A stretch of 64,000 bases of DNA from NCBI GenBank assembly GCA_049840595.1, contig JASGKO010000023.1, positions 100,911 to 164,910 on the forward strand, read 5' to 3'. The translations under genes were made by a program, and so were the position numbers. Below, piece after piece: positions 18,501 through 43,090 of this stretch (position 1 is the first letter of the stretch; the number at the start of each line of letters is the position of its first letter). The notes under the pieces were generated by a model. That model was not told the DNA's origin, ran no database searches, and saw nothing but the letters and a program-made list of their open reading frames with translations. This DNA comes from Chthoniobacteraceae bacterium (GTDB taxonomy: Bacteria; Verrucomicrobiota; Verrucomicrobiia; Chthoniobacterales; Chthoniobacteraceae).

Positions 18501-18770
18501 GGCGAGTTCGCTGTAGATCTCCTCCTGCCGCCGCGTGTTGCCGCAGACGATCCAGAGGCGGCGCTGGCCCGGCCTGGGGGCGAGCACGGAACGGGCGATC
18601 AAGCCGACGAGAAACGGCTGCGCCTGCTCCGCGATATGCTCAAACACGATAGGCTCCCCTGCCCCTGCCGCCACCTGCTGCAAGGTGGCCGCCAATTCCG
18701 GGCACGACGCCGCGATCTCCAGCGGGGTTTCCGCAGGAGTTGCGACGGGAGCAGTGGGCGCTTTCGGCAT
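15566..18770 (-). pseudogene. mfd: Transcription-repair coupling factor Mfd, split across at least 5 ORFs by four or more frameshifts. Possibly sequencing errors rather than a true pseudogene.
   Basis: N-terminal UvrB-like region (17682-18770 ORF); DEAD/helicase region ([34 protein letters not shown]); helicase C-terminal region ([41 protein letters not shown]); C-terminal TRCF domain in the 15566-15928 ORF. These lie in different frames. Confidence 0.85.
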
Positions 18771-18926
18771 GGTGTGGAGTAACGACGAAACGACGCGGGG
18801 ATTATTCTCCCCGCGTCTTCGTCTCTACGCATAGCGCGGGATCAACATGAAGTCCAGCCACCGCACCACAGGCGCACATTTCAAATTGACCCACCCGGCC
18901 AGCCCTTGTTTGTTTGTGGATTCCTT

Positions 18927-20061
18927 ATGTCCATCGACCTCCAAGCCATCAATACCGACGAGTTGAAATCCCGCGTGGGCGAGCTCCGGAGGTATCTTTG
19001 ACCTCGCCAAGCTGCAAACCCGCTTGAGCGAACTGGACGAGGCCATGTCGGCCGCCGATTTTTGGAACAACAAGGAAAGCGCGCAAGCCCAGGTGGAGGA
19101 ACTTTCCACCCTGCGGGCGAAGGTGAATCCCCTGCTCGATCTCGATCGCCAGGTTGGCGATCTGGAAGTGCTGAAGATGCTCGTGGAAGAGGAGCAGGAT
19201 GAAAGCGCGGTCAGCGATTTGAAAAAGGAATACGCGCAGGTGGAAAAAAGTCTGGCGGCCTTTGAGCTGCAGAGCCTGCTTTCCGGCCCGCAGGACAAGT
19301 TCGAATGCGTTCATCACCATTCATTCCGGCGCGGGCGGCACGGAATCGTGCGACTGGGCGGATATGCTGCTGCGCATGTACCAGCGCTGGATCGAGCGCC
19401 GCGGCTTCACAGCACCATGATTGACATTCAAGTCGGCGACGAGGCGGGGATCAAATCCGCCACGCTGCTGGTCGCAGGAAACTATGCTTTCGGCTATCTT
19501 GCCACCGAGCGCGGCGTGCATCGCCTGGTGCGCATCTCGCCCTTCGATGCGAACAAGCGGCGGCATACCTCGTTCGCGAGCATGGATATCGTGCCGGAAA
19601 TTGCCGATGACGCGCCGATTGAAATCAACCCGGCGGATATCGAACTGGACACCTACCGCGCGGCGGCAAGGGCGGCCAGAACGTGAACAAGGTGGAAACC
19701 GCCGTGCGCACTCATCCACATGCCCACCGGCATCATCGTCGCCTGCCAGGCCGAGCGCAGCCAGGGCCAGAACAACCGCGAGCTGGCGATGAAGATGCTC
19801 AAGGCCAAGCTCTACCAGATCGAGCAGGACAAGAAGCGCGCCGAGATCGAGCGGCAGTATGGAGAAAAAGGCGACATCGCCTGGGGCAGCCAGATCCGCA
19901 GCTACGTCTTCCAGCCCTACCAGATGGTGAAGGACCACCGCACCGGCGTCGAGACGAGCAACGTGCAGGCGGTGATGGATGGGGACATCGATGAATTCAT
20001 CGAAGGCAAGCTGCGCGGATGGACGGCGAAGAAGGGCCAGCAGAGCGACGACGACGTGTAG
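18927..20061 (+). CDS. prfB: Peptide chain release factor 2 (prfB) with a programmed +1 frameshift at CUU UGA C (18996-19002). There are also two apparent non-programmed frame changes around the GGQ motif (about 19660-19715).
   Basis: Frame 0 reads [24 protein letters not shown] then TGA; the +1 frame continues [16 protein letters not shown]... as RF2. [16 protein letters not shown] is readable only in a third frame; [14 protein letters not shown] and the C-terminus are in the 19720-20061 ORF. Confidence 0.9.
18988..19002 (+). promoter_or_regulatory. RF2 autoregulatory programmed +1 ribosomal frameshift site: internal SD-like GGAGG, then TAT CTT TGA C
   Basis: Exact match to the canonical prfB recoding cassette (SD-like element 3 nt upstream of CUU UGA C). 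Confidence 0.85.
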
Positions 20062-20069
20062 GCCGGGGA

Positions 20070-20121
20070 CGAGGCTGGAGCCTCGCAGACAATGGCGTTA
20101 CCAGGCTGGAGCCTGGTAACG
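20070..20121 (+). terminator. Tandem GC-rich hairpins after the prfB stop, each with loop TGGA: cgaggc-tgga-gcctcg and cgttaccaggc-tgga-gcctggtaacg. Putative terminator; also part of a repeated module.
   Basis: Perfect 6-bp and 11-bp stems by reverse-complement inspection. The same module recurs at about 23461-23515 and 24171-24230. Confidence 0.55.
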
Positions 20122-20129
20122 AGGGGGCG

Positions 20130-20531
20130 TCAGTAGCCCAAAATCGGTGGATAGCTTGAGAAAAATGAAGGTCCTGCTTCTGTTTCTTCTACAACTACCG
20201 TGATGGTCTTTGCTTTTCGGATTTCTTGTATTAGCAGTAGCGTAGCGATGGTTCGAAAATCCCGAGAATTTGCCCCGGCGCTAACCTCATATTCGTTCCC
20301 ATCCACGGCGAAGGAAACTTCGCCATTGTATAAGTCAGCCTTCAGATTTTTGAGCCCAACCGCTGACAATTCTTTTTGAACATTCCCGGCTTGCGCAGCC
20401 GTTAAGACAAACAGCGGGCTAAACAAGATCGACAGGAGTAAGGCTGTTTTCCGTAGCTCGAAAAACGATCCCCATGCTGTCGCTGTCTTTTCCCGTGCAA
20501 AAAATATTTTGGGAGCCAAGTTAGTTTTCAT
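20130..20531 (-). CDS. Small hypothetical secreted/membrane-anchored protein in lower-GC DNA
   Basis: 133-aa ORF with hydrophobic segment LLLSILFSPLFVLTAAQA. Flanked by prfB-end repeat copies A and D. Confidence 0.45.
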   Translation of the reverse strand: MKTNLAPKIFFAREKTATAWGSFFELRKTALLLSILFSPLFVLTAAQAGNVQKELSAVGLKNLKADLYNGEVSFAVDGNEYEVSAGANSRDFRTIATLLLIQEIRKAKTITVVVEETEAGPSFFSSYPPILGY

Positions 20532-20564
20532 CGTTTTTTTATAAAAAAAGAATGCGCCCTCTTC

Positions 20565-20618
20565 AAGCTGCGCGGTTGGACGGCGAAGAAAGGTCAGCAG
20601 GGCGACGATGATGTGTAA
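20565..20618 (+). repeat. Degenerate third copy of the last ~17 codons of prfB ([17 protein letters not shown] then TAA), without the hairpins
   Basis: About 90% identity to 20007-20061 (aagctgcgcgg.tggacggcgaagaa.gg.cagcag.gcgacga.ga.gtgta.). Confidence 0.6.
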
Positions 20619-20756
20619 GAAGCGGTGAAAGCCATTCCTCGCAAAGGTAATCCGAAGGTTACGCAGCTTTTAAAAGCAGGGAGGAAATCATCCTTTTATT
20701 CGCCCTGCTTTTGATTGTCTCCATCGGGGCATTTTTTGCGACCTGACTCCTATAGT

Positions 20757-21494
20757 TTACTTCTGCAACGCAGCTTCTGCCGCGAAGTGGCCAGCAAGCT
20801 GGGTTACAAATGTTTTCAGGCTCGTCAGCTCTGAAAACTCTACATATTTGCCTGTCCTGGCCGTTGATCTTGGCGAAGTAATGAAGGCCGCCGAGGTATA
20901 GAGGTTTTCCTTTACCAGCTTCTGACAAAGAAGGTTATAACGGTCGGCATAGGAACAGTCGGAGAATTCTTTGAAAACTGGGAAATGGGGAGATCGATCT
21001 TTGACTGGAGTTCGCGAGGCCGGACAATCTTCGATGAGCATGAGCCAGCCAAGGAATGGCTTGGTATGGTTGCCGAGCGCACCTTCGCGGAAGGCCGTCA
21101 ACAGATCTACGGCAGAGCCAATCGCCTCCTCCGTGCGGTTGTTGAAGTTGTTACCAAAGCTGCCGACCTGGCTCTTCATTTCAATAACAGCCACCAATCG
21201 CCCGTTATTCATCACGACCATGTCCCACTGCTTGGTTGGGCGAAAATAGCCGGGAAGGGTCACGACACCCTTGTTAAGACAAATCTGAGCATGCGTAAGG
21301 CCATTAGCTTTAACCAGATCGCCGATCAAAACGAGGAACCCGTCCATGTTTTTACCCGCAGTCACCGCGCCCCGACTCCCGGCATCCAGTTTACCAGCCT
21401 GCTCCTGCTTCTTGAGGGCAGCGGCGCGGTTCCCCCAAAATGCTTGCACTGCTTCGGTGGCTTTTACCTCGTAGTTGGCTAAATCGAGTGGCAT
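20757..21494 (-). CDS. Putative type II restriction endonuclease (PD-(D/E)xK fold; size and pairing resemble the XhoI/PaeR7I family)
   Basis: 245 aa. Candidate catalytic motif D(91)...VIEMK. Immediately downstream of, and co-oriented with, an N6-adenine MTase (5-bp gap). Low-GC island. Confidence 0.55.
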
Positions 21495-21498
21495 ACTT

Positions 21499-23169
21499 TT
21501 AGTGTCCTAACCAAATACGCTCCTCCGAAGTGAGCCGGTAGAGCTCGAAAACAGCTTCATTTGCCATCGACTGATCACCATTTCTACCTGCAGAAATGAG
21601 TTGCTCCTGAATTTTTAAGGGGACCGAATTCCAAAATGGAATTCTGATTCGGCGAAGATATTGCGCTTGGAACCTTAGAAATCCACCGGCCATCTGCACC
21701 GAATAGGTGGAGACAAAAAGCGCCGCAATCCCTGATCGCAGCACCGCCTGGAGGGCATGCAAATCCCATATATCGGATGTAATGAAATAAAGATTGTGGT
21801 GGGGATATAACTTGCCGGATTCATAAACCACATGTGCTTTCCCTTTGATGTCCGGAATGAGGAGCTTGGGTCGCCGAGTCAGTGAGGACGTGATTTTATC
21901 AATGGTCCGATACCAGCGTCGTTCGTCACGTTGGGCGCAATTTCTTCTGCGAAGAATCCCGGCATGCATTTCAAAATAAGCCTTCAATTTCGGATATTTG
22001 TCCAAGTCCACCAGTTGTCCATCCTCTGAAAATGGATTCACCACGCCTTTGCCGGTCCATTCAACATTATCCCCAATGATGTCTTTGGTGACAGCCAGCG
22101 GAAGTTTTCGATCCTCCTCGACGGGGAGTTCGTTGTAGTCACTGACGTAAACCTTGTCTGCGCCGGTCGCCACCCCGATTCCCACTTTGCAGCCAGCTTC
22201 TTCGAGAGTAGGCAATTCGGACTCCAGCCTTCGGACAATGGAAACCTGATCCAGCCCTTGTAAAATCCACGGTTCCTCATCATCCGCCACCTCATCTACT
22301 CGTTGAACCGATGGATGATTACTTCTCCCTTGAAGGGCGGGCACCAATTCCGAAAGTGCACGAGCCTCGACAACTGGTCGATGCGCAACATACGTCACCG
22401 ACTTGGGCTCTCGCTTGATGAGAGTGATTGCCGGGTAAGCCAACACGTCGGACAAAAACGCATCGGTATTAACCATGTCCACATAGGCCATGAGGTGAAA
22501 GCGCTCGGAAATCATCCGCCGGAGGGCCGAACCGTATTTGTTCTTCATCCACCGGTCCGCACAGATAAAACAAAGCACTCCCCCCGGTTCCAGCGAGTTC
22601 AACCCTTTTTCAATGAAAGGAACGTAGAGATCGGCACGATCATACATCGTGGAAAAGCGGTCTCGATATTCAGCCAATAACACAGGCGAAATCGACTCCT
22701 GTCGGACATAGGGCGGATTACCAACCACGTGAGTAAATGATCCGCCCAAGAACGTTAGTAGAAAATCTCCTTCAATCACCCATGCCAGCGCCAACTCCAG
22801 AGCGTCGGTTTCCGAGAAGCCATTTTCGACAAGGAGCGTTTTAACCTTTTCTCGCGTCTTTCCACAGGTTTCGGAATGCACTTCCACAGATCGAATTGCA
22901 TGTTTCAGATCATCCGTCACTTCGTTTACGCCATGCAAAGACGCAAGCAACCGCTCAACGGCGGGTAAGAGAAAGTCTCCCTCGCCAACACTCGGTTCCA
23001 GGAGTCTCAGCTTGGCCAAATCCTGATCGCTGGTGTAACCCGAGAGGTCCAGGATGAAATCAACCACTGCCCTTCGGGTGAAAATCGCGCCACGTGCTTC
23101 ATTGCCTGACCTCGAAAGCTCAGCCAAAGCCGCTTCCAAGGCAGGTGTGGAGCAAAGAAGATCAAGCAT
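21499..23169 (-). CDS. N6-adenine-specific DNA methyltransferase (gamma-class, TaqI/Eco57I-like) with a C-terminal target-recognition region
   Basis: Motif [17 protein letters not shown], motif [12 protein letters not shown], motif IV VVGNPPY, in the gamma-class order. Confidence 0.85.
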
Positions 23170-23315
23170 GTGGAGCAGCTCAATTCTGTTCCGATAGCTC
23201 GGAAAAGCAAGCCTGGCATCGGGAGAAAAAAACGCGACCGCATGGAAGGGAAATACCGGTGGGGAATGCGATGCGATTTTGCAGGAAAAGGCGACGCTTT
23301 TTATATGGCACCAGA

Positions 23316-23515
23316 GTGAAGGACCACCGCATCGGCGTCGAGACGAGCAACGTGCAGGCCGTGATGGACGGCGACATCGACGAGTTTATCGAAGGCAAGC
23401 TGCGTGGGTGGACGGCGAAGAAGGGGCCGCAGAGCGACGACGACGTGCAGGCGCGGGGACGAGGCTGGAGCCTCGCGGACCACGGCGTTACCAGGCTGGA
23501 GCCTGGTAACGAGGG
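23316..23515 (+). repeat. Diverged duplicate of the last ~44 codons of prfB ([44 protein letters not shown]; stop mutated to CAG) plus the dual TGGA-loop hairpin module
   Basis: About 90% nt identity to 19925-20125, with mostly synonymous third-position differences. Confidence 0.8.
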
Positions 23516-23533
23516 AGGGAACGAATGCTGTTA

Positions 23534-24025
23534 CTAGTGGACAGCTTGAGATGGCGGGCTGCCAGCCGCTGCCGCCGGGACCGCAGTAACATTGAAAAGG
23601 GCACCATCCTTTAGCCCGAGAATCATCGTGATGCTACTCGGACCGGAAGTTTTAAATGAGAGGGATGAGGACGGTTTGAAATGGATCACGAGTTCGATGA
23701 CGGGCGGCAGGTTCGGCACGTAGGCGACACCTTTGAGCGTGTAGCCCTTGGCTGCGGTGGCTTCAACTGGTGCAAATTCTGCATTGGAATACTCGCCCTT
23801 GAGCATTTCCGGGATCGCATATTTCTCCAGATTGTTTCGCACCCTTGGGGCCGTGCCGTCGAGGCAATAAAGCTTCTCGATGGCAGCGGCATCCTTTGCC
23901 TTAAAAGCCGACTCTACCTGGGCCAGAAATGCCGCCTGCTGCGGGCCGGTCGGTTCCAGCGAAGGATTGGTGGCCAGTCCAAAATCGCCACTAAGCAGGA
24001 GGAGAAAGAGGGGAAAATATTTCAT
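23534..24025 (-). CDS. Small hypothetical secreted protein (signal peptide MKYFPLFLLLLSGDFGLA)
   Basis: 163-aa ORF from ATG 24025. The ORF track extends further upstream, antisense into repeat C. Sits between repeat copies B and C. Confidence 0.5.
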   Translation of the reverse strand: MKYFPLFLLLLSGDFGLATNPSLEPTGPQQAAFLAQVESAFKAKDAAAIEKLYCLDGTAPRVRNNLEKYAIPEMLKGEYSNAEFAPVEATAAKGYTLKGVAYVPNLPPVIELVIHFKPSSSLSFKTSGPSSITMILGLKDGALFNVTAVPAAAAGSPPSQAVH

Positions 24026-24140
24026 CGATTTTTGTGAAAAAGGAAACCGCACTCGCCAAGGCAAACCAGCCAGCATCTCGTGCAAAGAAATAACGCCATG
24101 TAAACAGGGAGTAAAGCGCCAAGAATCGGCTCCCGCGCGG

Positions 24141-24230
24141 CAACAGAGCGACGACGACGTGTAGGCGCGGGGACGAGGCTGGAGCCTCGCGGACCGTGGC
24201 GTTACCAGGCTGGAGCCTGGTAACGAGGGG
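24141..24230 (+). repeat. Fourth copy of the prfB terminus (QSDDDV, TAG) plus dual hairpin module
   Basis: Near-identical to 20041-20127. Confidence 0.8.
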
Positions 24231-24292
24231 GGTGCTCTTCGCATCGCTATTCGAGTTGGAACTATTGAACGTGGCCTGCTAGAGAGGAAGGC

Positions 24293-24748: not shown

Positions 24749-26439
24749 GTGGGCGTGGAAGTAACGCAGTCGATTTCGCCCCCAACCAGCTCGCTTTTTT
24801 CCCGGCGGGCTGTTCGCATTCTGTTGATTGTGCTCGTGGGGCTGGCGGCGCAGGGGCATTGCCTGTGGTCCACCTTTTATCTCGACGATACGTGGCAGGT
24901 GGAGAACTCGGAGGCGGTGGAGGGCGGGCAGTGGTGGGCTGATCTGGTCAATTTGCTGCCGAATGCGAGCTACTACTTTACGTGGAAGTTTTTTGGATTT
25001 TCGGCGCCGATTTTTCATCTGGAGAATTTGCTGCTGCACTTGCTGGTGGCGCTGTCGGTGTATGGCTGGCGCGCTATTTCATGGCGCTGGGGAGCGGGGA
25101 GGAATCGGAGCGGTGGGAGAACGCGGCGTGGCTGGCGGCGCTGATTTTCGCAGTGCATCCGCTGACGACGGAGATGACCAACTATGTGCGGGCGCGGGAT
25201 CATGGGCTGGTGACGCTCTTTTCGCTACTGGCGGGGGGCTGCACGCTGCTGGCCCTGCAACGGCGCTGGCTGTGGGCGCTGGCGGCGCTGCTGGCCGTAG
25301 TGCTGGCGACGATCTCGAAGGGGCCGGGGCTGCCGCAGGCGCTCTGCAACTGCCTCGCGGTGGTGGGGGCGTATTGCTGGCTGCGCGGGTGGAAGGGCCT
25401 GCGGATTTCGTGGCCGGTGGGGCTGGCCGTGGGAGCGGCTGCGGGGCTGGTCTTCGCGGTGGCGTTCGGGCACATCCGGTATCTTTGGACCGTGCTGGCG
25501 GGGCAATTCGCGAATCCGCAATTTGGGTTGCATGCGCTCACGCAGTGCCGGGTGTTTCCGCAATACCTGCTGCGGATGGTGTGGCCGGTCGATCTGTGCT
25601 CGGATCACCTGGTGGCGTGGACGAAGGATTACGCCGATCCCACGGCGTGGGTCTATGTGGCGGGGGTGGTGGCGGTGCTGGGCGTGCTGGCTTTTCTCGG
25701 CCTGCGCAAGCGGCAGCCGTGGGCCCTGCTGCTGGGGCTGGCGCTGGCGCCGCTGCTGATGCGCTGGCTGTACCTGGTGAGCGAGTTGATGGTGGAATAT
25801 CGCACTTATCCCTGCCTGCCCTTCGTGGCGATGCTGATGGCGGTGGCGGTGCAGCGCTGGCTTCGCAAACAGCCCCGGGTGGCATGGGGCGTGGCCGGGA
25901 CGGTGCTGGTTTTCTTTTCGGCCCTCACTTTCCAGCGCAGCCTCGACTGGCGCAGCACGGATGCGCTTTGCACGCAGATCAGCACCCTTTATCCGCTGCA
26001 TTTGCGCGAGATGAATGAACGCTCGACGTGGGATCTCGATGCGGGACGCTACGAGGCGATTCTGGACCGGTATCCGGGATTTCTGGCCACGCTGAACAAG
26101 GTGATGGATTACAACCGCTCGACGCCGCATCGCTATTACGACAACTGGCCGCTGTGCGTGGTGAATGAGGAGTGCATGGTCTCCGAGGCGATGGCGCACG
26201 TGAAATCGAAGTGGGATGGGCAGGCGCATCTGGACCTGACCGCCTGGCGAATGCTGCAAAATCACATCTATCACCCCGGGCTGTGGGCGCAGTGGCATTA
26301 CTCGGCGGGGAACATTGCGCTGCTGGAGGGGGATGAAAAAAGCGCGCTCCAGCATTACTTGAATGCGCGGGCTTACATCGCGACGCCGCTGCTGGTGGAC
26401 CGGCAGATTGCGAAGATCGTGCCGGGGTATGGGCGATAG
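24749..26439 (+). CDS. TMTC/PMT-like (DUF1736-type) polytopic membrane protein with a C-terminal soluble region; frameshifted near 25070-25100
   Basis: GTG start. N-terminal region YYFTWKFFGFSAPIFHLENLLLHLLVALSVYGW is typical of DUF1736/TMTC. It continues in another frame (ORF 24982-26439) with AAWLAALIFAVHPLTTE. Confidence 0.6.
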
Positions 26440-27112: not shown

Positions 27113-27751
27113 TTACTTCACGGGACGGCGGAAGAGGAAGAGGTAGCTGTTAAACACGGTGTTGCCCCAAAGCGGACGCACTTCGACCTCGAAGCCGGCA
27201 GCCTTGAAGGGGGCGGTGATTTCCTCGATGCGCAGATAGTGTTTCGTCGAGAATTTCATCCAGCGGATTTTGGCGATGAACCACTCCTCCAGCTTGGTCA
27301 TGCGGAAGCGCCAGTTGTCCACGTAAGGCGTGGCGCGGATGAGGCAGAGGCCGCCGGGGGCGACCATTTGCGCGGCCTGCTGCAGCAGGGCCTGTTGCTG
27401 CTCCACTTCGAGGTAGTGCAGGACATCGATGATGGTGACGTTGCCGGAAAACGCACGCGGGATGCTGGCGTCGCCCTGCTCGAAGACGAGGTGATCGTAC
27501 AGGGCGCCCACTTTTTGCGCGGTGTCGATTTTCCGGGAGTCGAAATCAAGGCCGGTGATGGGGGGCCGGAAACCGTGCTCGCGCAGGTAATAGGCGAGCA
27601 GGCCCACGCCGCAGCCGAGATCGATCAACGGCTGATCGGTGTCGCGCAGAATTTCCCAGGCCGCCGCGAAGACGGGATCGCCCTTCAGCTTTCCCTTCAC
27701 GTAGCCCTGCATGAAGCGGCCTTTGAAATGAGAAGCAATGCGCTCGATCAC
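27113..27751 (-). CDS. Class I SAM-dependent methyltransferase
   Basis: SAM-binding motif I LIDLGCGVGLLA and the downstream acidic-loop pattern. Last gene of the 7-gene operon. Confidence 0.8.
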   Translation of the reverse strand: MIERIASHFKGRFMQGYVKGKLKGDPVFAAAWEILRDTDQPLIDLGCGVGLLAYYLREHGFRPPITGLDFDSRKIDTAQKVGALYDHLVFEQGDASIPRAFSGNVTIIDVLHYLEVEQQQALLQQAAQMVAPGGLCLIRATPYVDNWRFRMTKLEEWFIAKIRWMKFSTKHYLRIEEITAPFKAAGFEVEVRPLWGNTVFNSYLFLFRRPVK

Positions 27752-29049
27752 CGGATGGCAAAGTCAGCCGGGCGATGCCCGCGGATTCCGTATTTTCCCA
27801 GCATCCCGAGCAGCCACTTGCTGTAGGGACGGTTGATATAGGCGCCGGTCGCCATACCGCTGAGGTTTTTTTCCATATGCGCCTGCATCAGGTCGCTGAT
27901 CTTGCCGGGATACTTTGCGGAAATATCCAGGCCGGTGCGCTGGATGGCGAAGATGCGGCCGTCGTAAAAATAATCGATGAGATTCTGCCAGGCGGCGAGC
28001 ATGCCGCGGAGCCAGCGCCAGTAGGCATCGAACTCCCTGGGCAATCCCGGATGGGCGCCACCGCGGGCCGGGATGATTTCCGAGAGCCGTTCGGCGCTGA
28101 CCATGGCCATGCAGAGGCCCGGGGAAAGCATGGGGTCCACGAAACCGAAGGCATCGCCGACCATGGTCCAGTTCTCACCCGAGCCGTAGTCGGAGATGAG
28201 CTGGTAGTTGGCGAAGGTGGCGATGTCGGTGACGCGGCGGCGCTGGCCGCAATCGCTGGCGATGCGGGGCTCGTTGTCGATGATCGCTTCGAGCTGTTCC
28301 TCGGGCGTGCTGCCGAAGCGCCTGGCGTCGTCCTTGTTGATCACGACACCGATGGAGAGACGGCCCGGCAGCGGGATGCGCCAGGCCCAGCCGTACTGCA
28401 GGCGAATGGTCATGACGTGACCGCGCGGCTCGGGCCACGGGGCGTTTTCGTAGTGGGCGAAGTGGGAGATGTCCTTGCGCCGGCCCACCTTGGAACCGAT
28501 GCCGAGGAGTTTGGCGAACAAGCGGCGGCGACCGCTGGCGTCGATGACCAGATCGGGCTCGGAATCCCACTCGGGCACGAGGGCGAGCGACTCGGGGGCG
28601 AGCTTCACGCGCGACTTTTGTTTCGCCCCGGCATTGACCGCCTCCAGCCTGGCGGCGCTTTGAAGGTAGCGCACCCCGGAGTCGATCGCGGTCTTCAGGA
28701 TCAAAGCGTCAAATTCCTGGCGTGGCACGTTGTAAGCGTAAGGCGGGAGCAGCCCGCGGGTGGCGGTGAAGAAAAGCCGGATGTCCTGCTTTTCGTCGAA
28801 GGTGAAATTAACGCCGGGCTTGAGGACACCGATTTTTGCGACCTCTTCCTCGATGCCGAGGCGCTGAAAAATCGGCACCATGAGCGGAACGAGCGATTCC
28901 CCGACGATGAGGGGCGGGCGGGCTCCATCGTCGAACATGGCGACGGACGCGCCCTTGCGCGCGAGCAGCGCGGCGAGCGTGGCCCCAGACGGGCCGGAGC
29001 CGATGATGGCGACGCGGGTGGGGCGTTGGGATGAGGCAAGGTTGACCAT
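27748..29049 (-). CDS. Flavin-dependent halogenase (tryptophan-halogenase family)
   Basis: N-terminal GxGxxG (VAIIGSGPSGA) and the family-diagnostic WxWxIP motif (GWAWRIPLP). 4-nt overlap with the downstream MTase. Confidence 0.8.
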   Translation of the reverse strand: MVNLASSQRPTRVAIIGSGPSGATLAALLARKGASVAMFDDGARPPLIVGESLVPLMVPIFQRLGIEEEVAKIGVLKPGVNFTFDEKQDIRLFFTATRGLLPPYAYNVPRQEFDALILKTAIDSGVRYLQSAARLEAVNAGAKQKSRVKLAPESLALVPEWDSEPDLVIDASGRRRLFAKLLGIGSKVGRRKDISHFAHYENAPWPEPRGHVMTIRLQYGWAWRIPLPGRLSIGVVINKDDARRFGSTPEEQLEAIIDNEPRIASDCGQRRRVTDIATFANYQLISDYGSGENWTMVGDAFGFVDPMLSPGLCMAMVSAERLSEIIPARGGAHPGLPREFDAYWRWLRGMLAAWQNLIDYFYDGRIFAIQRTGLDISAKYPGKISDLMQAHMEKNLSGMATGAYINRPYSKWLLGMLGKYGIRGHRPADFAIR

Positions 29050-29064: not shown

Positions 29065-30501
29065 TCAGCGTTGAATTTTCCCGCTCGGCGTTTTGGGCAG
29101 GGCGGCGACGAAGGTGTATTTAAGCGGGAGTTTGTAGCTCGAAAGGCGCGCCCGGCACCAGCCGATGAGCTCGGAAATTTTGGGCGGGGTGGCAGGATCG
29201 GCCACGACGATTTCGGCGACGGGCACGCTGCCAAAGGCGGGATGCGGGATGGCGATGACGCGCGATTCCTGCACGGCGGGGTGTTCGTTCAAAGTGGCCT
29301 CGACTTCCTCGGGAAAACATTTCATGCCGCCGACGTTGATCACGGAGTGCGTGCGCCCGGTGAGGTAGAGGGCGCCCTCGGCATCGCGCCGGGCCTGATC
29401 GCCGGTGCGGAACCAGCCATTTTCCAGGATCTCCGCGCGCGGCAGCCAGGGCGAGAGATAGGCATCGACGAAACCGGGACCGCGCAGGAAAAGCTCGCCC
29501 GCGATTCCGGTGGAGACCTCCGCGCCGTGTTCGTCGCGGATCGAGATTTCGTAGCCTGCCTGCGGACGTCCGACGGAATCGGGTTTCTCGACCGGCCATT
29601 GATCGTTTAACAACGGGAGGCCGCACTCGATGATGCCCATCGCCTGATGCAGCGGCAGACCGAAGCGCTCGACGAACTTTTGCCCGGTCGCCACGGGGAG
29701 GGCGGCGGCGGTGGAAACGGCGAGGCGCAGGGACGGAACCGGCTTGGCCGGCTCGTGACCGGCGAGCAGCGCGTAGTGAAACGGCGAGGCGTAGAGGGCG
29801 GTGCCCTGGTGCTTTTCCAAAGCGCGGAAGACGTCTTCGCCGAGATGCGACTCCTCGATCACGGTGGTCGCACCGTGCAGGAGATAGAGCACGATGGAGA
29901 CGGCGAAGTGATGGGCCATGGGCAGCACCCAGATAATTCGATCCCCGGGGCCGAAACGAAGGTGGCTGTTGCTGGCGGTGACGCGGGCGAGGAGTGTCTC
30001 GTGGGAGAGCACGACGCCCTTGCGCTTGCCGGTGGTGCCGGAGCTGAAGCGGATGAGCGCGGGATTCACTGCCGCGAGTGCGTCCTCGGAAAAATCGACG
30101 GCCCCCTCGCGCAGCCCGGTCAGGAGCGTGGCCTCGCCGAGACCGGCGGCGTGCAGCGGGCGGGAATTGGGAGCAGGCCGGTGCCACTCCCTGCCATCGG
30201 CGCAAAGGACGGCATCGAGGCCGGTGGTGCGGAGCTGCGCCTCGCGCTCGGGGTGGCTCAACTCCGGGGCGACGGGCACCAATACGCCGCCGCACTTGAG
30301 CACGGCGAGAGACCAGACGATGTGGGCGATGCCATTCGGACAATGGAGACCGATCCGCTGGCGGCCCGCCTCCCCCAGGGCACTCGCCGCCGCGAGCATT
30401 TGCGCCTCGACGTCGCCAAAAGTCAACGAACGCTCCCCGGCAATGATGGCCACCGCCGAGCGATCGGCGCGCGCAAAGATTTCATCAACGACATTCATCA
30501 T
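29065..30501 (-). CDS. Acyl-AMP/acyl-CoA ligase (ANL adenylating enzyme)
   Basis: AMP-binding core FSSGTTGKRKGV, YASPFHY, TGDQARRDAEGALYLTGR, LPKTPSGKIQR. Confidence 0.85.
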   Translation of the reverse strand: MMNVVDEIFARADRSAVAIIAGERSLTFGDVEAQMLAAASALGEAGRQRIGLHCPNGIAHIVWSLAVLKCGGVLVPVAPELSHPEREAQLRTTGLDAVLCADGREWHRPAPNSRPLHAAGLGEATLLTGLREGAVDFSEDALAAVNPALIRFSSGTTGKRKGVVLSHETLLARVTASNSHLRFGPGDRIIWVLPMAHHFAVSIVLYLLHGATTVIEESHLGEDVFRALEKHQGTALYASPFHYALLAGHEPAKPVPSLRLAVSTAAALPVATGQKFVERFGLPLHQAMGIIECGLPLLNDQWPVEKPDSVGRPQAGYEISIRDEHGAEVSTGIAGELFLRGPGFVDAYLSPWLPRAEILENGWFRTGDQARRDAEGALYLTGRTHSVINVGGMKCFPEEVEATLNEHPAVQESRVIAIPHPAFGSVPVAEIVVADPATPPKISELIGWCRARLSSYKLPLKYTFVAALPKTPSGKIQR

Positions 30502-31763
30502 ATGCGGGAAGAATTGAGCCGGGAGGTTCTAACACGCGTGGCGAGCGCCTGCCAATCCCCGGCAACGGGATTGCGAAGATTTTCCACGGCCGCGAGCGCA
30601 GCGGCTTCACCAGTGGCCAGGCAGGTGCCCATGACGCGGATCGAAGCCTGCGCTTCGTGCGAGGCGGAGAGGCAACGTCCAGCGACCCAGAGATTTTCCA
30701 CCGCGCGGTGTTTCAACGAGCGCAGGGGAATCTGCGGGACGACCCCCGGCTCGGGATAGCGCCAGCGCGGGCCGGTGGCCTTTTCGCGCAGCTCGACGGG
30801 CCAGGCGGCGACGGCGACCGCATCCGGAAAAGGGGTGCCGGAAAGGAGATCTTCCACCGGCAATTCATACACGCCAGCAGCCCGGCGGCTTTCCCGCACG
30901 CCAGCACGGGATGGCCATTGCGCCACGACGCAGGATTCGCAGCCGGCGATTTTTTCCCGCAGGTGCCGCACAATGGCGAGCGCGGTGCGGCGTCCGGTGA
31001 ATTCCACTTCCGCCAGCAATTCTGGCGCGCACGGGTCCCACTCGCCTCCGGTGAGATCAATCGTCATGAAGGCCTCGTCGTTGCGCATTCCGGCGCGGAA
31101 GCCGGTGCCGAGGGCTTCGCCGGGCAATTCACCGGATTTCACGGCGGCGGCGATGGCATGGGCGAGCTTCAGCCGACCCGAGTCATCGAAGAAGCCCGGG
31201 GGAAAGCCGCGCAGTCCGACGATGTAGGCGGGGCGTTGCAAGCGGGCGGACTCCACCTGCTCGAAGGCCGCGCCACCGAGCACGGTGAGCGTGGCGTCGC
31301 CAGTGGTATCAATGAAGGCGCGGGCGTGAATTTCCCGGCGCTCGCCGCGGCAAATGACCTGCACCTGGTTGGCAGTGAAATCCGCGGCCACCAACTCGCT
31401 GTGCAGCCAGCAGTTCAAGCGCGGCGTCTCGTTGACCATCGCATCGGCCAGGGCCGCGAAGCTCACGGGATCGTGCGGGAGCACATCCACGCGGCCCATG
31501 CGCACGGGTTCTTTCGCGCCGCCGCTTTGCAGGAGACGCCCGGCAAATTCGCGCGGAAAACCGTCATTGGCCCAGGCGACGCCGGGTTCCTCGCGCATGA
31601 GGTAGAGCCCGCAAATCGTATGCACGAGGGCCGAGGTGCCCATGCCTCCGAGGAGCCCGCCACGCTCGATGAGCAGGACTTCGGCCCCGGCCCGGGCGGC
31701 ACTGATCGCGGCGGCGATCCCCGCGCTGCCTCCTCCGGCGACCAGCACGTCGCAGGTCGTCAT
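30498..31763 (-). CDS. FAD-dependent oxidoreductase (FAD_oxidored/GidA-like fold)
   Basis: N-terminal dinucleotide-binding motif VLVAGGGSAGIAAAISAARAG. Start and stop overlap neighbours by 4 nt. Confidence 0.7.
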   Translation of the reverse strand: MTTCDVLVAGGGSAGIAAAISAARAGAEVLLIERGGLLGGMGTSALVHTICGLYLMREEPGVAWANDGFPREFAGRLLQSGGAKEPVRMGRVDVLPHDPVSFAALADAMVNETPRLNCWLHSELVAADFTANQVQVICRGERREIHARAFIDTTGDATLTVLGGAAFEQVESARLQRPAYIVGLRGFPPGFFDDSGRLKLAHAIAAAVKSGELPGEALGTGFRAGMRNDEAFMTIDLTGGEWDPCAPELLAEVEFTGRRTALAIVRHLREKIAGCESCVVAQWPSRAGVRESRRAAGVYELPVEDLLSGTPFPDAVAVAAWPVELREKATGPRWRYPEPGVVPQIPLRSLKHRAVENLWVAGRCLSASHEAQASIRVMGTCLATGEAAALAAVENLRNPVAGDWQALATRVRTSRLNSSRI

Positions 31764-33493
31764 GCCGCGCCGAGATCGGTGAGGAATTGGTCGAGCATCA
31801 ACTGGCGCTCGGTCGCATCGAGCGCGCCATCATGCCAGCACATGGTGACAATGAGGCGACCGTTCTTCTCGTTGCAGAAGATGCCGGTGCCGGGCGGCGT
31901 GGCGATGCCGGGGACGTGATAGGCGTTCACCACTTTGGCGCCGAGAAACTCATTCATCCCGCTCGCAAACTCGCCGGTGTGCGAGTGGAAGAAGGAGGCG
32001 AACGGCCCCTTCATCTGAAGCTGCACGAAGCGCATGTAGAGACCGGCGGGGATGACGCTCATGCTGTGCATGAGGTCGTTGAGCGATTCGCCGAGGCGCT
32101 CCTTGAGGAAGCGGGCCTGCTGCTCCAGCAGCGAGGCGGTGGCGGTCTCGATGCTGCCGATCTGGTCCCGCTCCAGCACCCCGAAGAACATGGTGAGATG
32201 GTTTTGAAAAATCGGCCCGCGCGCGCCCTTGCGGCGGCGTTGCACCGGGACGTTGCAGGTGTGCGAGGCCGGAACCAGGCCGCGATGGGCGAAAACACGA
32301 TCGTGCGCACGCATCGAGCAGGCGAGGTAGAACGGCAGGTTGATGAGCCCACCGCAGAGCGAGGCGCAGCGTTCATTGGCCTTGCGCGTCTGCTCTTCAG
32401 TCAAGGTGTGGACGAGGAAACGGGTGACGCCCTTCTTTGGCGTGCGCGAGCCGAGACAGGAAATCGTGTGCTGCGAGAGCTTGCGGAAGAACTGGACGAT
32501 GGGGCGGGCGGTGATCCAGCGCTCTTTCCAGGTGGCCGTTTCGTCGTCCAGCGCGGAGTCCACGCCGGGGATCGGTTCGTCGCTGGAGTCGGAGCCGAGA
32601 CGCTGGAGGTCTTGCAGGAAGAATTCCGCGCCGACGCCATCCATCATCAGGTGGCTCCAGGAGAACATGAGGATGACGGTGCCATCGCGGGTCTCAAAGA
32701 GGCTGAAGCGGGCCTTGGGCCAGACTTTCGCTCCCGTGCGGGGCATGGGGTCGTTGATGACCGCTTCCATCTGGGAATGGATGTCGGTGCAGGGCTGCCC
32801 CCCCTCGGCGAGGAGCTGGCCAGCGGACCCCTGCTCGCTGAACAGGCGCAACTCCGGCACGGCGGGTTCTGCGGACGGCACCCAATAGGGGATGCCGAAG
32901 AAAAAATTCCGCTTCAACAACGCGGAAAGCATCGGATAAACCTCCGCCGCACGGGCAAGGAGCGAGCGCAGGCGGGCCAAATCGGGCACATGATCGAGCA
33001 CGAGAATGGAGTGGGCCCGGTGCCCCCCCTGCCCGGCTTTGCGCGACAGCGTGTCGAAGCCGAGCACGAAATAATCGCAGCCGCGCATCGGCAGTTTTTC
33101 AAAGGTCATGTTGCACGTCGTGCGCTTCGCCGGCTCGGGCCTGGTGCCGTTGACCGACGGGGGGATGACCGGAGCGACGGCGGCGACGGGAGGGGCGGGC
33201 GTCTCCTCCGGAGCCGGGGCAGTTTCGGCTGGGCCCAGCTTGGTCCGCAATAGATCGGCAATCGTCCGGACGGTGGAGAAATTCTTTCGCGAAACGGATT
33301 CCACCGGGATGCTGACGTGGAACTCCTCCTCCAGCACGAGCAGGAGCTGCATGATCGCCATGGAATCCAGCCCGGCGGCGTAGAGATCGCTATCTGGCGA
33401 GAAGCCGTCCCCGGTTTCCAAAATCCGCTCGCTAATGAGCGTTAACAGATTGTTTTCAAGGTCTTCGGGAGCAGGAGCCGTCGGTAAATTCAT
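31760..33493 (-). CDS. Fusion protein: N-terminal acyl carrier protein domain plus C-terminal condensation-like acyltransferase domain (NRPS C / WS-DGAT / PapA5 superfamily)
   Basis: Ppant attachment site GLDSMAIMQLL near the N-terminus; HxxxDG catalytic motif (SWSHLMMDGVG) in the C-terminal domain. Confidence 0.7.
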   Translation of the reverse strand: MNLPTAPAPEDLENNLLTLISERILETGDGFSPDSDLYAAGLDSMAIMQLLLVLEEEFHVSIPVESVSRKNFSTVRTIADLLRTKLGPAETAPAPEETPAPPVAAVAPVIPPSVNGTRPEPAKRTTCNMTFEKLPMRGCDYFVLGFDTLSRKAGQGGHRAHSILVLDHVPDLARLRSLLARAAEVYPMLSALLKRNFFFGIPYWVPSAEPAVPELRLFSEQGSAGQLLAEGGQPCTDIHSQMEAVINDPMPRTGAKVWPKARFSLFETRDGTVILMFSWSHLMMDGVGAEFFLQDLQRLGSDSSDEPIPGVDSALDDETATWKERWITARPIVQFFRKLSQHTISCLGSRTPKKGVTRFLVHTLTEEQTRKANERCASLCGGLINLPFYLACSMRAHDRVFAHRGLVPASHTCNVPVQRRRKGARGPIFQNHLTMFFGVLERDQIGSIETATASLLEQQARFLKERLGESLNDLMHSMSVIPAGLYMRFVQLQMKGPFASFFHSHTGEFASGMNEFLGAKVVNAYHVPGIATPPGTGIFCNEKNGRLIVTMCWHDGALDATERQLMLDQFLTDLGAA

Positions 33494-33507: not shown

Positions 33508-34230
33508 TTAGCCAGCGCGTCTTTCCCCTGTCAAGCCAGTGCAGGCTTTCTCCAAACTAGCCGGGCGCGCGGCCAGGGGCTGCCCCGATGCGCCTTTTAC
33601 CCATTCCGGGCGGCGGCGCATTCCTTCGGCAAGGGAGCGCATGGCTTGCTCGATCTGCCCGGCCATGATCCGGCGGTCTTCCCGGCGGTTCCCAGTGTGC
33701 GGCGGGTGAATGGGCTCCCCACAGACCACCCAGAGGCGGCAGGGCTTGGACATACGCCAGACCATGGGCCGCAGGAGCGCTTCCGAGCCGAGCACCACAC
33801 AGGGAATCACCGGCTTGCCGCTGCGCATGGAGACCAGGCACACCCCGCGCTTGATCCGCCCTCCGCGCAGGACGGACTCCGCATCGCGCTTGATCTCGCC
33901 TTCAGGGAAAATCCCGACCACCTCGCCCGCCTGGGCCAGGCGGATGGCGGTCTTGACCGCACTCACCGGCACGCCCTGGCGATTGACGGGAAAGGCCCCC
34001 ACCTCTTTCAGCAGGCGGGTGCTCCACCAGGAACGGTAAAACTCGACCCGCGCCATCCAACGAACGTGACGCTTGAGGACCACACTGACGCAAAACGGGT
34101 CGAGATGACTCGCATGCGTGCACGCCAGGACATACCCCCCCTCGCGCTCGCTCTGGGCCAGATCGAGTCGCAGGCGGATGGTGCGGTGGAACACACGTCC
34201 CGAAAAGAAGCGGACAAGGGAGTAGAACAT
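33508..34230 (-). CDS. PlsC-type lysophospholipid/glycerol acyltransferase (LPLAT)
   Basis: H(x4)D motif (CTHASHLD) and IFPEGE motif. Confidence 0.8.
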   Translation of the reverse strand: MFYSLVRFFSGRVFHRTIRLRLDLAQSEREGGYVLACTHASHLDPFCVSVVLKRHVRWMARVEFYRSWWSTRLLKEVGAFPVNRQGVPVSAVKTAIRLAQAGEVVGIFPEGEIKRDAESVLRGGRIKRGVCLVSMRSGKPVIPCVVLGSEALLRPMVWRMSKPCRLWVVCGEPIHPPHTGNRREDRRIMAGQIEQAMRSLAEGMRRRPEWVKGASGQPLAARPASLEKACTGLTGERRAG

Positions 34231-34232
34231 CG

Positions 34233-35013
34233 TCAGCGCAATTGGTCGTCGGCGGGGATGACAAAGGAATAGCCGCGATTCTGCAACTCTTCAACCACGC
34301 GGAGAATGGTCTGGTTACTTTTGGCACGGCCCTCGTGGAGGAGGATGATGCCGCCCGGGTGGGCCTGGGGCACGACGCGCTCCACCACTTTTTCCACATC
34401 GCAGATGAGGCCGTCGTGGCCGCGAATATTCCAGGCGACCAGGCGCATTTCCAAGCCCGCCAACAAGGAGTGCAACCGCACATGCTTGAGCCCGAAAGGA
34501 GCACGGAACCAGCGCCCCACCTGCACCCCGGTGCGGGCGAGGCGTTCGTTTCCGCGGACCACCTCATCCCGCAAGGCCCAGGGCAGCAGCGCCCAGAAGG
34601 TCGCGACCGGGTGCGTGTGCGTATGATTGGCCAGGGTATGGCCGAGCGTCATCATCGCGCGGGCGGTTTCCGGCTGCTTTTCCAGGCGTTCACCGATGAC
34701 AAAAAAAGTCGCCCGCACCTGCCGCTGGGCCAGTTCCCGGGCCAGGGCCATCGAGTTTTCCCCATCCGGACCGTCGTCGATGGTAAGCCACAGTTCCTTT
34801 TTGTCCGTCACAAACCGGGTCACCACCGGCCCGAAAATCCCCGAGGAGGGCGCGATCAATCCGTAAATAAAGCTCCCATGTACCAGGCACGGCCGGGCCA
34901 GCCATCCACCAATGCCAGCCGAGCCCGATGACCAGCGCGGGCAGGGCCAGATTGAGCAGCAAAAAGCCCCGGCGCAGCCATGGCGTATCGAGCGGCTTGG
35001 GAGATTGGAGCAT
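34233..35013 (-). CDS. Polysaccharide deacetylase (NodB homology domain), probably membrane-anchored; N-terminal region in a different frame (frameshift about 34860-34900)
   Basis: TIDDGP and NHTHTHP motifs. An alternative-frame N-terminus (ORF 34690-35085, from Met at 35013) gives a TM helix LLLNLALPALVIGLGWHWW. Confidence 0.7.
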
Positions 35014-35153
35014 CCGGGTTGCATAGCATGGCCGTTTTCCTGGAGGCAAGAGTGCTGCTTTCTTTTGTGCAATCTTTTTTATCACCTATAAAAAGCCCTT
35101 CCAAAATTCCTGCGGTTGTCGCCCGGCGGTCCTTGTGCAATTCTGGCCGCCCG

Positions 35154-36090
35154 ATGTCTCAACCGCCACCAGCCCCGCAAGCACGCCGCACTTCCGGCTG
35201 GTATGGCATTGCCTGTTTCAAGCTGGCCCATTATGCGACCTATGTGATCCCCCGGCACCTCGGAATGCGGGTGGCGGATTTGCTCGCGGCGATCACCTAC
35301 CGGCGGGCGCGCGCCGGACGCGCGGCGCAGCGGGAAAATCTCCACACCGCCACCGGGCTGAGTGGCGCGGCACTCGAACAGCTCTGCCGGGCCAATTACC
35401 GGAACTTTGCGCGGATGCTCACCGATTACTTCTACCTCACCCGCTCGGGAGGCGCGCACCTGCGCAGTCTCCTGCACGGCTGGAGCGGCATCGAATACCT
35501 GAAGACCGCGCGGGAACAGGGGCGCGGGGTGATTCTGATCACGGCACATCTGGGGCATTGGGAGATGGGGGGCATCCTGCTCTCCCTGGATGGCATGCCG
35601 ACGAATATCATCACCCTGCCCGAGCCGGGGAGTCTCAACGAATGGCGCGAGGCCAACCGCCGCGCAGCCAGGGGTAAAAACGATCACCGTGGGCGCGGAT
35701 AAATTCGCCTTTGTGGAAATCATGCGGGTGCTGCGGCAGAACGAGTGCGTCGCCATGCTGGTGGACCGGCCCTATGCCGGCAGCGGCGTGCCGGTGAAAT
35801 TGTTCGGGCAGGATACGGAGTTTTCCAGCGGCCCGGTGCGACTGTGGGAACACACCGGCTCGCCGATTCTCCCGGCGTTCGTCCTCCAGCGACCGGATGG
35901 TTTTTATACCTCCTTCATCGCACCACCGGTGGAGCTGGACCCCGCGCTGTCGCACGAACAGAACACCCAGCGAATTGCCGACAGCTTCGCGGAGATCATC
36001 CGCCAGCATCCCGAGCAGTGGTATAACTACGTGCCAGTTTTTAAATCCTCCGAGCGCCCGGCCGAAGAACCGGTTGCGACCGCCAAGTAG
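35154..36090 (+). CDS. LpxL/HtrB-family lipid A (lyso-lipid) acyltransferase, frameshifted near 35660-35700; divergent from the 7-gene operon
   Basis: ILITAHLGHWEMGG (HX4E-type LABLAT motif) in the 34980 ORF. C-terminal half (MLVDRPYAGSGVPVKLFGQDTEFSSGPVRLW...EQWYNYVPVFK) in the 35590 ORF. Confidence 0.7.
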
Positions 36091-42600: not shown

Positions 42601-43090
42601 CAGCAAACTGGAGGTGCCCTATGGGTATGTCTATTTCACCAAGGACGAACCTTTTACCCCGCAGCTCGACATCCAGGGCAGTTCCTCGATGCGCGGCTAC
42701 GATATCTCGGTCTATATCTACGGCGATCCCGGCAATCCGCTCACCATCTTCACCAGCCAGCCCCCGCTGCCACAGGAGGAAATCATCTCGCTGCTCGCCA
42801 CGGGCCTGACCACAAGCGAGATCACCACCAATGGCGATGCCGTAGCCGGGCGCGCGGCGGTGCTGGCGTTCCAATCGCTCTATCGCAAGATTTTCAAACA
42901 CTCCGAGGCGACGGAAAAGGATTCGTTCCTGGATCGGTTCGAGTTCGACATCGGGGGGGTGGACCCACGCACCGGGCACCAGGATATCTCGGCCCAATTC
43001 CAACTGACCAAGCGCTTCTTCCTCGTCGGCGCGCTGGATGTGCAAGGCAACCTCACCGGCCAGGTGAAATACCTCATTCGATTCAAGTGA
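39606..43090 (+). CDS. tamB: TamB-like translocation and assembly module protein (AsmA-like/DUF490), with frameshifts near 40080 and 42390
   Basis: N-terminal signal-anchor MRKLAFCALLAFLLFLAALVG; very long beta-rich body; C-terminal DUF490-like segment ORF 42431-43090 (...GQVKYLIRFK). Located immediately upstream of a TamA/BamA-like gene. Confidence 0.75.

Follow-up and report, generated by a model that had tools for sequence, protein, structure and literature searches.

A flavin-dependent halogenase family gene in a ligase and carrier-condensation cassette of Verrucomicrobiota

In the pyrrole systems of the halogenases Bmp2, Mpy16 and PltA, proline is loaded by an amino-acid adenylation domain and oxidised by an acyl-CoA-dehydrogenase-type enzyme. 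The logic of these pathways, which combine a loading enzyme, a carrier, a FAD enzyme and a halogenase, has been described (PMC8407142), and the substrate attributed to ChlB4 is a salicylate-type acid, 6-methylsalicylate, that is bound to a carrier (PMC8407142). FasV chlorinates a free aromatic polyketide with the help of the reductase CtcQ (PMC11420778), and RadH is reported to act on free compounds as well (PMC10377541). Halogenase genes are furthermore carried by xanthomonadin clusters (PMC3691225), and for aryl polyene (APE) lipids acyl and glycosyl transfer together with LolA/MMPL export has been proposed (bioRxiv 10.1101/2020.12.19.423268). Here we analyse a stretch of 64,000 nucleotides from a Chthoniobacteraceae bacterium (contig JASGKO010000023.1, positions 100,911 to 164,910), in the following called the window. 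At 27748-29049 it codes for a protein whose sequence places it firmly in the flavin-dependent halogenase family. Neither the enzyme class nor halogenation on a carrier is new, but the setting of this gene is.

Placement among characterised halogenases

The halogenase gene (27748-29049, minus strand) codes for 433 aa from an ATG start, and its product scores 86.3 bits with the Pfam model Trp_halogenase (PF04820), for which the gathering cut-off is 21. At NCBI, the window's proteins are MGC3989829-MGC3989834, from a Chthoniobacteraceae metagenome-assembled genome (MAG); the halogenase is MGC3989830.1 and is labelled merely as a NAD(P)/FAD-dependent oxidoreductase. The motifs of the halogenase family are GxGxxG, WxWxIP and Fx.Px.Sx.G; WxWxIP is thought to keep the substrate from the flavin, and the motifs line the tunnel for hypohalous acid, HOX (PMC8407142). 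All three are found in the protein. Motif scan and homologue alignment placed the FAD-binding motif GSGPSG at residues 17-22 (28984-29001) and WAWRIP at residues 221-226 (28372-28389). The scan also placed the tunnel motif FVDPMLSPG, which has GDA before it, at residues 303-311 (28117-28143; residues 298-311 read GDAFGFVDPMLSPG) and the candidate catalytic lysine, Lys77 in VLKPG, at 28819-28821, all on the minus strand. FVDPMLSPG aligns with FIDPLLSTG of FasV, FLDPIFSSG of Bmp2 and FVDPIFSSG of Mpy16. Pairwise alignment with HMMER matches Lys77 to the Lys-Gly position of FasV (8zop, rKyG), Bmp2 (5bul, dKPG) and Mpy16 (5buk, kKfG), which we take to be the catalytic lysine and the equivalent of PrnA K79.

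GSGPSG, Lys77, WAWRIP and FVDPMLSPG are all invariant in 25 homologues with 50-91% identity, including the G, G, P and G of the first motif and both W, the I and the P of WAWRIP. The GES at residues 50-52 is likewise invariant, and its Glu51 may match the glutamate that has been discussed for CmlS. Because the motif set is invariant among these homologues, it is under selection and does not represent a chance match. The identification of a flavin-dependent halogenase from WxWxIP and GSGPSG, made in an earlier note on this DNA, is thus confirmed by the ORF, the PF04820 score and the invariant motifs, and the lysine to which that note had drawn attention is present, aligned and invariant. The note had also taken WxWxIP as the mark that sets halogenases apart from ordinary flavin monooxygenases. 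The motif is indeed present and invariant, but it is not diagnostic on its own. In a six-frame scan of the window, a second W.W.IP motif (WTWLIP) was encountered on the minus strand at about 22.47 kb (position ~22470, converted from the six-frame index), inside the ORF of an Eco57I-like methylase (21499-23169). That methylase is unrelated, and only the motifs taken together have diagnostic value.

A profile of the protein's own family was searched against all PDB sequences, and the grouping was judged by the ranking of bit scores. The top ten proteins score 126-185 bits, and nine of them are named halogenases. FasV ranks highest (185 bits), followed by Mpy16 (169), ChlB4 (161), PltA (154), Bmp2 (145), the uncharacterised 3nix (143), CndH (138), CmlS (132) and RadH (126). 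The tetracycline halogenase (77 bits) and PltM (64 bits) score lower, and the best non-halogenase, a Bacillus flavin monooxygenase, reaches 47 bits. The family thus groups with halogenases and not with monooxygenases, the outcome on which the earlier note had made its identification depend. Within the ranking, the variant B (carrier-protein-dependent) enzymes Mpy16, ChlB4, PltA, Bmp2 and CndH interleave with FasV, RadH and CmlS, whose substrates are free or listed as free. On this sequence evidence, the best explanation is that the halogenase belongs to the phenol/pyrrole-type, two-component branch and not to the tryptophan branch.

PrnA and RebH share the superfamily and the motifs WxWxIP and FxxPxxSxG with the protein, but a tryptophan halogenase of the PrnA/RebH type was rejected, since only fragmentary local matches were obtained (E about 5e-5, ~50 residues). 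In the profile search these enzymes score 36-39 bits, and they do so only on residues 4-66, the N-terminal FAD motif. They are ~530-550 aa long, while the protein described here falls short of this by ~100 residues, and no tryptophan-binding module can be aligned in it. As the protein is not a tryptophan halogenase, a check for Glu346 of PrnA/RebH is not applicable.

The best solved match is FasV (PDB 8ZOP; phmmer E 7e-33), which aligns over residues 12-363. FasV has a length of 412 aa and shares GxGxxG, GES, Lys-Gly, WxWxIPL and FxDPxxSxG with the family, while the last ~66 residues of the protein from the window are family-specific in comparison to FasV. The pathways differ. FasV acts at a late step of an actinomycete type II polyketide synthase (PKS) pathway, whereas the locus described here has no PKS but a ligase, a carrier protein fused to a condensation domain (PCP-C) and lipid acyltransferases. 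Taken by its sequence, we consider the protein very likely to be a true halogenase.

The operon and its conservation in related genomes

Seven genes follow each other on the minus strand in the order deacetylase, PlsC-type acyltransferase, PCP-C, flavoprotein, ligase, halogenase and methyltransferase. The operon is translationally coupled: start/stop overlaps of 4 nt (ATGA or GTGA) join PCP-C to flavoprotein, flavoprotein to ligase and halogenase to methyltransferase. The halogenase adjoins the candidate loading ligase, and the carrier PCP-C lies two genes upstream; about 40 of the 80 best related loci show the same arrangement. When 26.4-36.2 kb was scanned for promoters and terminators, the counts did not stand out from those in shuffled sequences, so that the scan is uninformative.

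Directly upstream of the halogenase is a stand-alone adenylate-forming (ANL) ligase of 478 aa (29065-30501, minus strand; Pfam AMP-binding and AMP-binding_C). The gap between the two genes is 15 nt in the window and 1 nt in relatives. The ligase carries the motif PMAHHFAVS, which is of the acyl/aryl-acid type, and lacks the FDxS of amino-acid adenylation domains. Its nearest PDB proteins are a feruloyl-CoA synthetase and a benzoate-CoA ligase (about E 1e-42). An amino-acid adenylation function, as in the proline-to-pyrrole route, is unlikely, since PMAHHFAVS replaces FDxS and acyl/aryl ligases are the best matches.

The ligase gene is preceded by that of a PF12831 FAD-dependent oxidoreductase of 421 aa (30498-31763, minus strand; Pfam E 4.6e-85), which has ATGA overlaps at both its junctions and an AlphaFold2 (AF2) model with a predicted local distance difference test (pLDDT) score of 95. 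The next gene upstream (31760-33493, minus strand) codes for the PCP-C protein of 577 aa, assigned by its Pfam PP-binding match and its fold as a carrier protein fused to a condensation domain of the nonribosomal peptide synthetase (NRPS) type. The PP-binding domain (residues ~16-85) is followed by a Pro/Ala-rich linker and the condensation domain (~130-577) with the motif SHLMMDG. DS44, H281 and D285 are invariant in 39 homologues, and Ser44 would carry the phosphopantetheine. By sequence, the 450-residue domain stays near noise against PDB and Pfam (Condensation E 0.055). The AF2 model, built with the 39 homologues (pLDDT 87), was searched with Foldseek against PDB and retrieved the stand-alone AzeD and the condensation domains of TycA, LgrA, SrfA-C and CDA (E 1e-22 to 1e-18), and the matches also take in cyclisation domains, epimerisation domains and PCP-C didomains. 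According to the model, the C-terminal part of the protein is a member of the NRPS condensation-domain superfamily, with a predicted two-lobed CAT-like fold and a HHxxxDG-type motif.

With the ligase, the flavoprotein and PCP-C upstream, the halogenase is embedded in a minimal NRPS-like module. The earlier note had described its partners as acyltransferases rather than NRPS or PKS. Acyltransferases are indeed present, but the NRPS part of that statement does not hold. The product of the methyltransferase gene (27113-27751, minus strand; 212 aa, GTG start overlapping the halogenase stop) is a class I SAM-dependent enzyme with matches to Pfam Methyltransf_23/25/12/11. At the other end of the operon are a PlsC-type (lysophospholipid) acyltransferase of 240 aa (33508-34230, minus strand; PF01553, motifs HASHLD and FPEGE), for which NCBIfam gives AGP_acyltrn and acyl-ACP--phospholipid O-acyltransferase, and a NodB-type polysaccharide deacetylase with the carbohydrate esterase 4 fold (34233-35072, minus strand; PF01522), for which NCBIfam gives PdaB and NodB. 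The N-terminus of the deacetylase is uncertain: in the related metagenomic contig L085, which is 84% identical to the window, the start maps to 35013, and there is a 1-nt indel near 34888.

An LpxL-type (Lip_A_acyltrans) acyltransferase gene is oriented divergently (35184-36087, plus strand). It was detected by tblastn with the intact 304-aa gene of L085, of which residues 4-165 align to 35184-35669 and the rest, residues 166-304, to 35671-36087 with 91% identity; one extra base near 35666 splits the gene into two frames. An ORF of 224 aa at 35082-35756 (minus strand), which might be taken for the first gene of the operon, is considered spurious, because it has no Pfam or NCBIfam match and is antisense to the conserved LpxL-type gene. 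Altogether, frame changes in comparison to L085 occur near ~34888, ~35666, ~37690-37780 and ~25015-25063, where they affect the deacetylase N-terminus, the LpxL-type acyltransferase, an AXE1 esterase and a 563-aa hypothetical protein. A single extra base was seen at both sites that were inspected, neither of them within a long homopolymer. These frame changes could be MAG assembly indels or real pseudogenisation. A second Lip_A_acyltrans-like region at 54866-55666 (plus strand) is 26% identical to the cluster-linked LpxL-type protein and may represent the housekeeping lipid A late acyltransferase.

Relatives of the halogenase were found in 394 genomes in a scan that used one genome per species. 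When homologues are clustered at 90% identity, over 120 clusters are 49% or more identical to it. The view that halogenases are rare in Verrucomicrobia-like genomes, as put forward in the earlier note, finds no support, since these species-level genomes are mostly Verrucomicrobiota and several loci even have a second halogenase. The best 80 relatives are almost all from Verrucomicrobiota (Chthoniobacterales, Terrimicrobiaceae, Verrucomicrobiaceae, Prosthecobacter, Brevifollis and Luteolibacter), with about a dozen from Rokubacteria/Methylomirabilota.

Synteny was counted for the best 80 related loci by tblastn of the operon proteins and by unbiased clustering of all ORFs. The halogenase was recovered in 78 of these loci, PCP-C in 39, the ligase directly upstream of the halogenase in 38-39, and the PF12831 flavoprotein in 29-32. 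The remaining genes are less frequent: MMPL and LPG_synthase_TM with 16 loci each, the patatin-like phospholipase, the methyltransferase and the deacetylase with 13 each, a LolA-like protein with 13 plus 6, and a ketosynthase (KS) with 5. The order PCP-C, flavoprotein, ligase, halogenase is kept in about 30-40 of the 80 loci and across two phyla. The extent of the cassette varies between groups. Chthoniobacterales loci such as L003/L010 have the complete set and a second halogenase. In Verrucomicrobiaceae the flavoprotein is missing and the cassette consists of PCP-C, ligase and halogenase, and in Rokubacteria there are only the carrier, the condensation domain, the flavoprotein, the ligase and the halogenase, located between housekeeping genes such as dnaX and recR.

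The second protein of the Trp_halogenase family has 513 aa and is ~25% identical to the first (L003/L010, 16546-18087, minus strand). It also occurs in L043, L053, L063, L068, L070 and L072, while the window has no copy. Its presence suggests two halogenation steps or two regiochemistries in these loci. The LPG_synthase_TM gene, which codes for a lysyl-phosphatidylglycerol synthase/flippase-like protein, adjoins the halogenase in its 16 loci, often without the rest of the cassette; these loci include L007, L028, L029, L033, L047-L051 and L056, and also L001 (11317-12357). In L007 the longest ORF of the MMPL cluster (17224-20490, minus strand; 1088 aa) matches, with its C-terminal part, the LpxL-type acyltransferase region of the window. 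This hints at an MMPL-acyltransferase fusion or at a read-through in ORF calling.

A proposed pathway and its alternatives

By homology, the halogenase would bind FADH2 from a separate, unlinked flavin reductase, and FADH2, O2 and chloride or bromide would yield hypohalous acid. This would pass the tunnel lined by WxWxIP and FxDPxxSxG to Lys77, which would direct electrophilic halogenation of an electron-rich carbon. The conserved gene order suggests that the carrier domain of the 577-aa protein would receive an acyl group from the ANL ligase, and the acid in question is most probably a hydroxy-aryl one or another carboxylic acid rich in electrons. The PF12831 flavoprotein, where present, and the downstream methyltransferase may tailor this group, and the condensation domain would pass it on to an acceptor with a free amine or hydroxyl. 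This acceptor is probably a (glyco)lipid of the envelope, on which the two acyltransferases (PlsC-type and LpxL-type) and the NodB-type deacetylase would have acted beforehand. A deacetylase of this type that exposes an amine for N-acylation would parallel the NodB/NodA logic. In relatives, LolA-like and MMPL proteins would move the product outward.

Flavin-dependent halogenases attack electron-rich carbons, which makes an ordinary fatty acyl chain unlikely as a substrate. An aromatic one is supported by the acyl/aryl-CoA-ligase-type motif of the ligase and its nearest solved relatives, and by the phenols or pyrroles which the characterised relatives of the halogenase use. The Verrucomicrobiaceae cassette has no flavoprotein, which suggests that the acid can be halogenated as it is loaded. 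A lipid destination is indicated by the PlsC-, NodB- and LpxL-type genes in the window and by the MMPL, LolA, LPG_synthase_TM and patatin genes in relatives. Precedents for such a pathway are the halogenation of a carrier-bound acid attributed to ChlB4, the halogenase genes of xanthomonadin clusters, and the acyl transfer and LolA/MMPL export proposed for APE lipids. For the whole chain, halogenation of a carrier-loaded electron-rich acyl group that is then moved to an envelope lipid, we see the balance tipped slightly in favour. That the substrate is carrier-tethered is, taken by itself, rather probable, while a product anchored in a lipid is put forward only tentatively. The halogenated lipid-like product that the earlier note had envisaged is plausible.

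The Bmp2, Mpy16 and PltA proteins have the same motifs, the aligned lysine and the short single-module architecture, and the pathway logic corresponds. The components differ in that the ligase described here lacks FDxS and the flavoprotein belongs to PF12831, and off-loading would use the fused condensation domain where the pyrrole systems use a thioesterase or PKS.

In the chlorothricin branch (ChlB4/ChlB2/ChlB5/ChlB6) the halogenated acid is subsequently O-methylated and moved to a sugar hydroxyl. This order of halogenation, methylation and transfer is paralleled by the halogenase, the methyltransferase and the transfer domain described here. The chlorothricin acid comes from an iterative PKS and its acceptor is a spirotetronate deoxysugar, while here a free acid would be ligated and the acceptor is presumably a lipid.

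Clusters for APE and xanthomonadin resemble the locus in their AMP-ligase that loads an aryl acid on an acyl carrier protein, in their methyltransferase and in their lipid-type acyltransferases, and the xanthomonadin clusters also have a halogenase. Their export genes for LolA-like and MMPL proteins have counterparts beside the cassette in 13-19 related loci but not in the window. Neither the window nor the majority of related loci have the type II PKS core, which consists of KS and chain length factor, a ketoreductase (KR) and two dehydratases (DH). Within 10 kb of the cassettes of relatives no type II PKS domains were found, except for the KS in 5 of the 80 loci. In place of the APE type II PKS genes there are the PCP-condensation didomain and the PF12831 flavoprotein. 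A full aryl-polyene cluster was therefore rejected, as the operon and the flanking ORFs have no KS, KR or DH genes. Literature searches on Verrucomicrobia halogenases and on halogenase-bearing aryl polyene clusters yielded no published description of a ligase/PCP-C/halogenase cassette.

Several points weigh against the proposed pathway. No family member has a known activity, substrate, halide or product, and since FasV and RadH act on free compounds, it is gene context that argues for carrier dependence. The orthologue of the Prosthecobacter/Brevifollis clade, with about 55% identity, often stands alone or is accompanied only by an LPG_synthase_TM gene. The LpxL-type gene of the window is frameshifted, and the 64-kb window contains neither LolA nor MMPL. 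The specificity of the ligase is ambiguous, as models for fatty-acid ligases fit it no worse than those for aryl ligases. For the PF12831 flavoprotein, the Foldseek matches were all to generic two-domain flavoproteins (TM <= 0.47); no close solved relative is among them, and no reaction can be assigned. The best match of the condensation-like domain, AzeD, is deposited as a dehydratase, so that the domain might modify the acyl group instead of transferring it. Finally, no flavin reductase was identified in the operon, but no search was aimed at one.

The solitary orthologues bear on the possibility that the halogenase acts at a late stage, in the style of variant A, on a free small molecule or a finished lipid, with its position beside the carrier module reflecting no more than a shared pathway. 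In Prosthecobacter, Brevifollis and related genera the PCP-C gene is on a different contig from the solitary halogenase, and FasV, the closest solved enzyme, acts on a free phenolic, as does RadH. We nevertheless regard this as unlikely, given that the adjacency of ligase and halogenase is tight and conserved across two phyla and that the protein, with its 433 aa, resembles Bmp2 (409 aa) in being short. The scores against the fatty-acid CoA ligase subfamily models, which are the highest for the ligase, would suit an enzyme that acts, in the way proposed for CmlS, on an enolisable aliphatic intermediate bound to the carrier, either a beta-ketoacyl or an enoyl thioester made with the aid of the flavoprotein. 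The product would then be a halogenated fatty-acyl lipid, as the earlier note had implied. The CmlS model NF033113 is the best NCBIfam match of the halogenase (105.6 bits), a flavoprotein able to desaturate or oxidise is encoded between the carrier and ligase genes, and a ketosynthase is near the cassette in five loci. However, the CmlS score is far under the cut-off of 900 bits and comes from a match to the N-terminal 314 of 570 profile positions only. CmlS is also just ninth among the solved structures, behind phenol and pyrrole halogenases, and the Verrucomicrobiaceae cassette does without the flavoprotein. Halogenation of unactivated sp3 carbons is the chemistry of non-haem iron halogenases and is not known for flavin-dependent ones (PMC8407142). 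On balance, an aliphatic substrate is quite improbable.

It is highly improbable that the protein does not halogenate at all and is a QhpG/LodB-like hydroxylase or a geranylgeranyl-reductase-type reductase. The public label would permit this, and the NCBIfam models for QhpG, geranylgeranyl reductase and LodB match with E 1e-27 to 1e-15, but all of them remain under their cut-offs (QhpG 96.7 bits against 240, geranylgeranyl reductase 78 against 158.8, LodB 56.1 against 400), as does GoxB (48.4 against 400). Among solved structures, the halogenase-like hydroxylase QhpG (7ctq) reaches 35 bits and the archaeal geranylgeranyl reductase 41 bits, compared to 126-185 bits for the halogenases. Moreover, Lys77, WxWxIP and FxDPxxSxG are invariant, and the motifs are those that shield the flavin and line the HOX tunnel (PMC8407142). 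Halogenation of a carrier-loaded, electron-rich acyl group is the reading that we prefer. A more specific version, in which the cassette of Verrucomicrobiota and Rokubacteria is an envelope-lipid tailoring pathway that decorates the head-group of a membrane (glyco)lipid with a halogenated and methylated aryl-acyl unit, is speculative and in our view unlikely to be correct in full.

Other features of the window and implications of the cassette

Two further regions of the window deserve mention. The stretch 19927-24232 has a GC content of 0.50-0.55, compared to about 0.60, and carries an XhoI-like restriction endonuclease (20757-21494) together with the Eco57I-like methylase (21499-23169). Direct repeats of 94-142 nt (19927-20128, 23316-23518 and 24139-24232) lie at its borders and between its genes, and each of them holds short hairpin-like GGCTGGAGCC units. 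The repeats are not tRNAs, and a copy is also found in L085. In appearance, the stretch is a repeat family or a mobile island for restriction-modification. At 39898-45138 (plus strand) a single ORF of 1746 aa combines a TamB domain, a POTRA repeat and a C-terminal Omp85 barrel. TamB and Omp85-type functions are usually split between TamB and TamA/BamA.

In composition, the cassette differs from characterised halogenating pathways. Its components are familiar, and it is their combination and their breadth in Verrucomicrobiota that are of interest. A strongly conserved halogenase family, present in hundreds of species of Verrucomicrobiota and Rokubacteria, has so far carried just the public label of an oxidoreductase. 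It is tied to a minimal ligase/PCP-C module and often to PlsC, LpxL-type, NodB-type, LPG-synthase-TM, patatin, LolA and MMPL genes. If the product were merely a small phenolic metabolite, the finding would be routine. A halogenated envelope lipid, in turn, would represent a new lipid class for a major and poorly studied soil phylum and a biological source of soil organochlorine. It would also offer a compact, self-contained system for work on carrier-dependent halogenases, an enzyme group that is difficult to investigate in vitro. Should the cassette indeed be an envelope tailoring pathway, organohalogen lipids would be routine in abundant soil and freshwater bacteria and not a rare kind of secondary metabolite.

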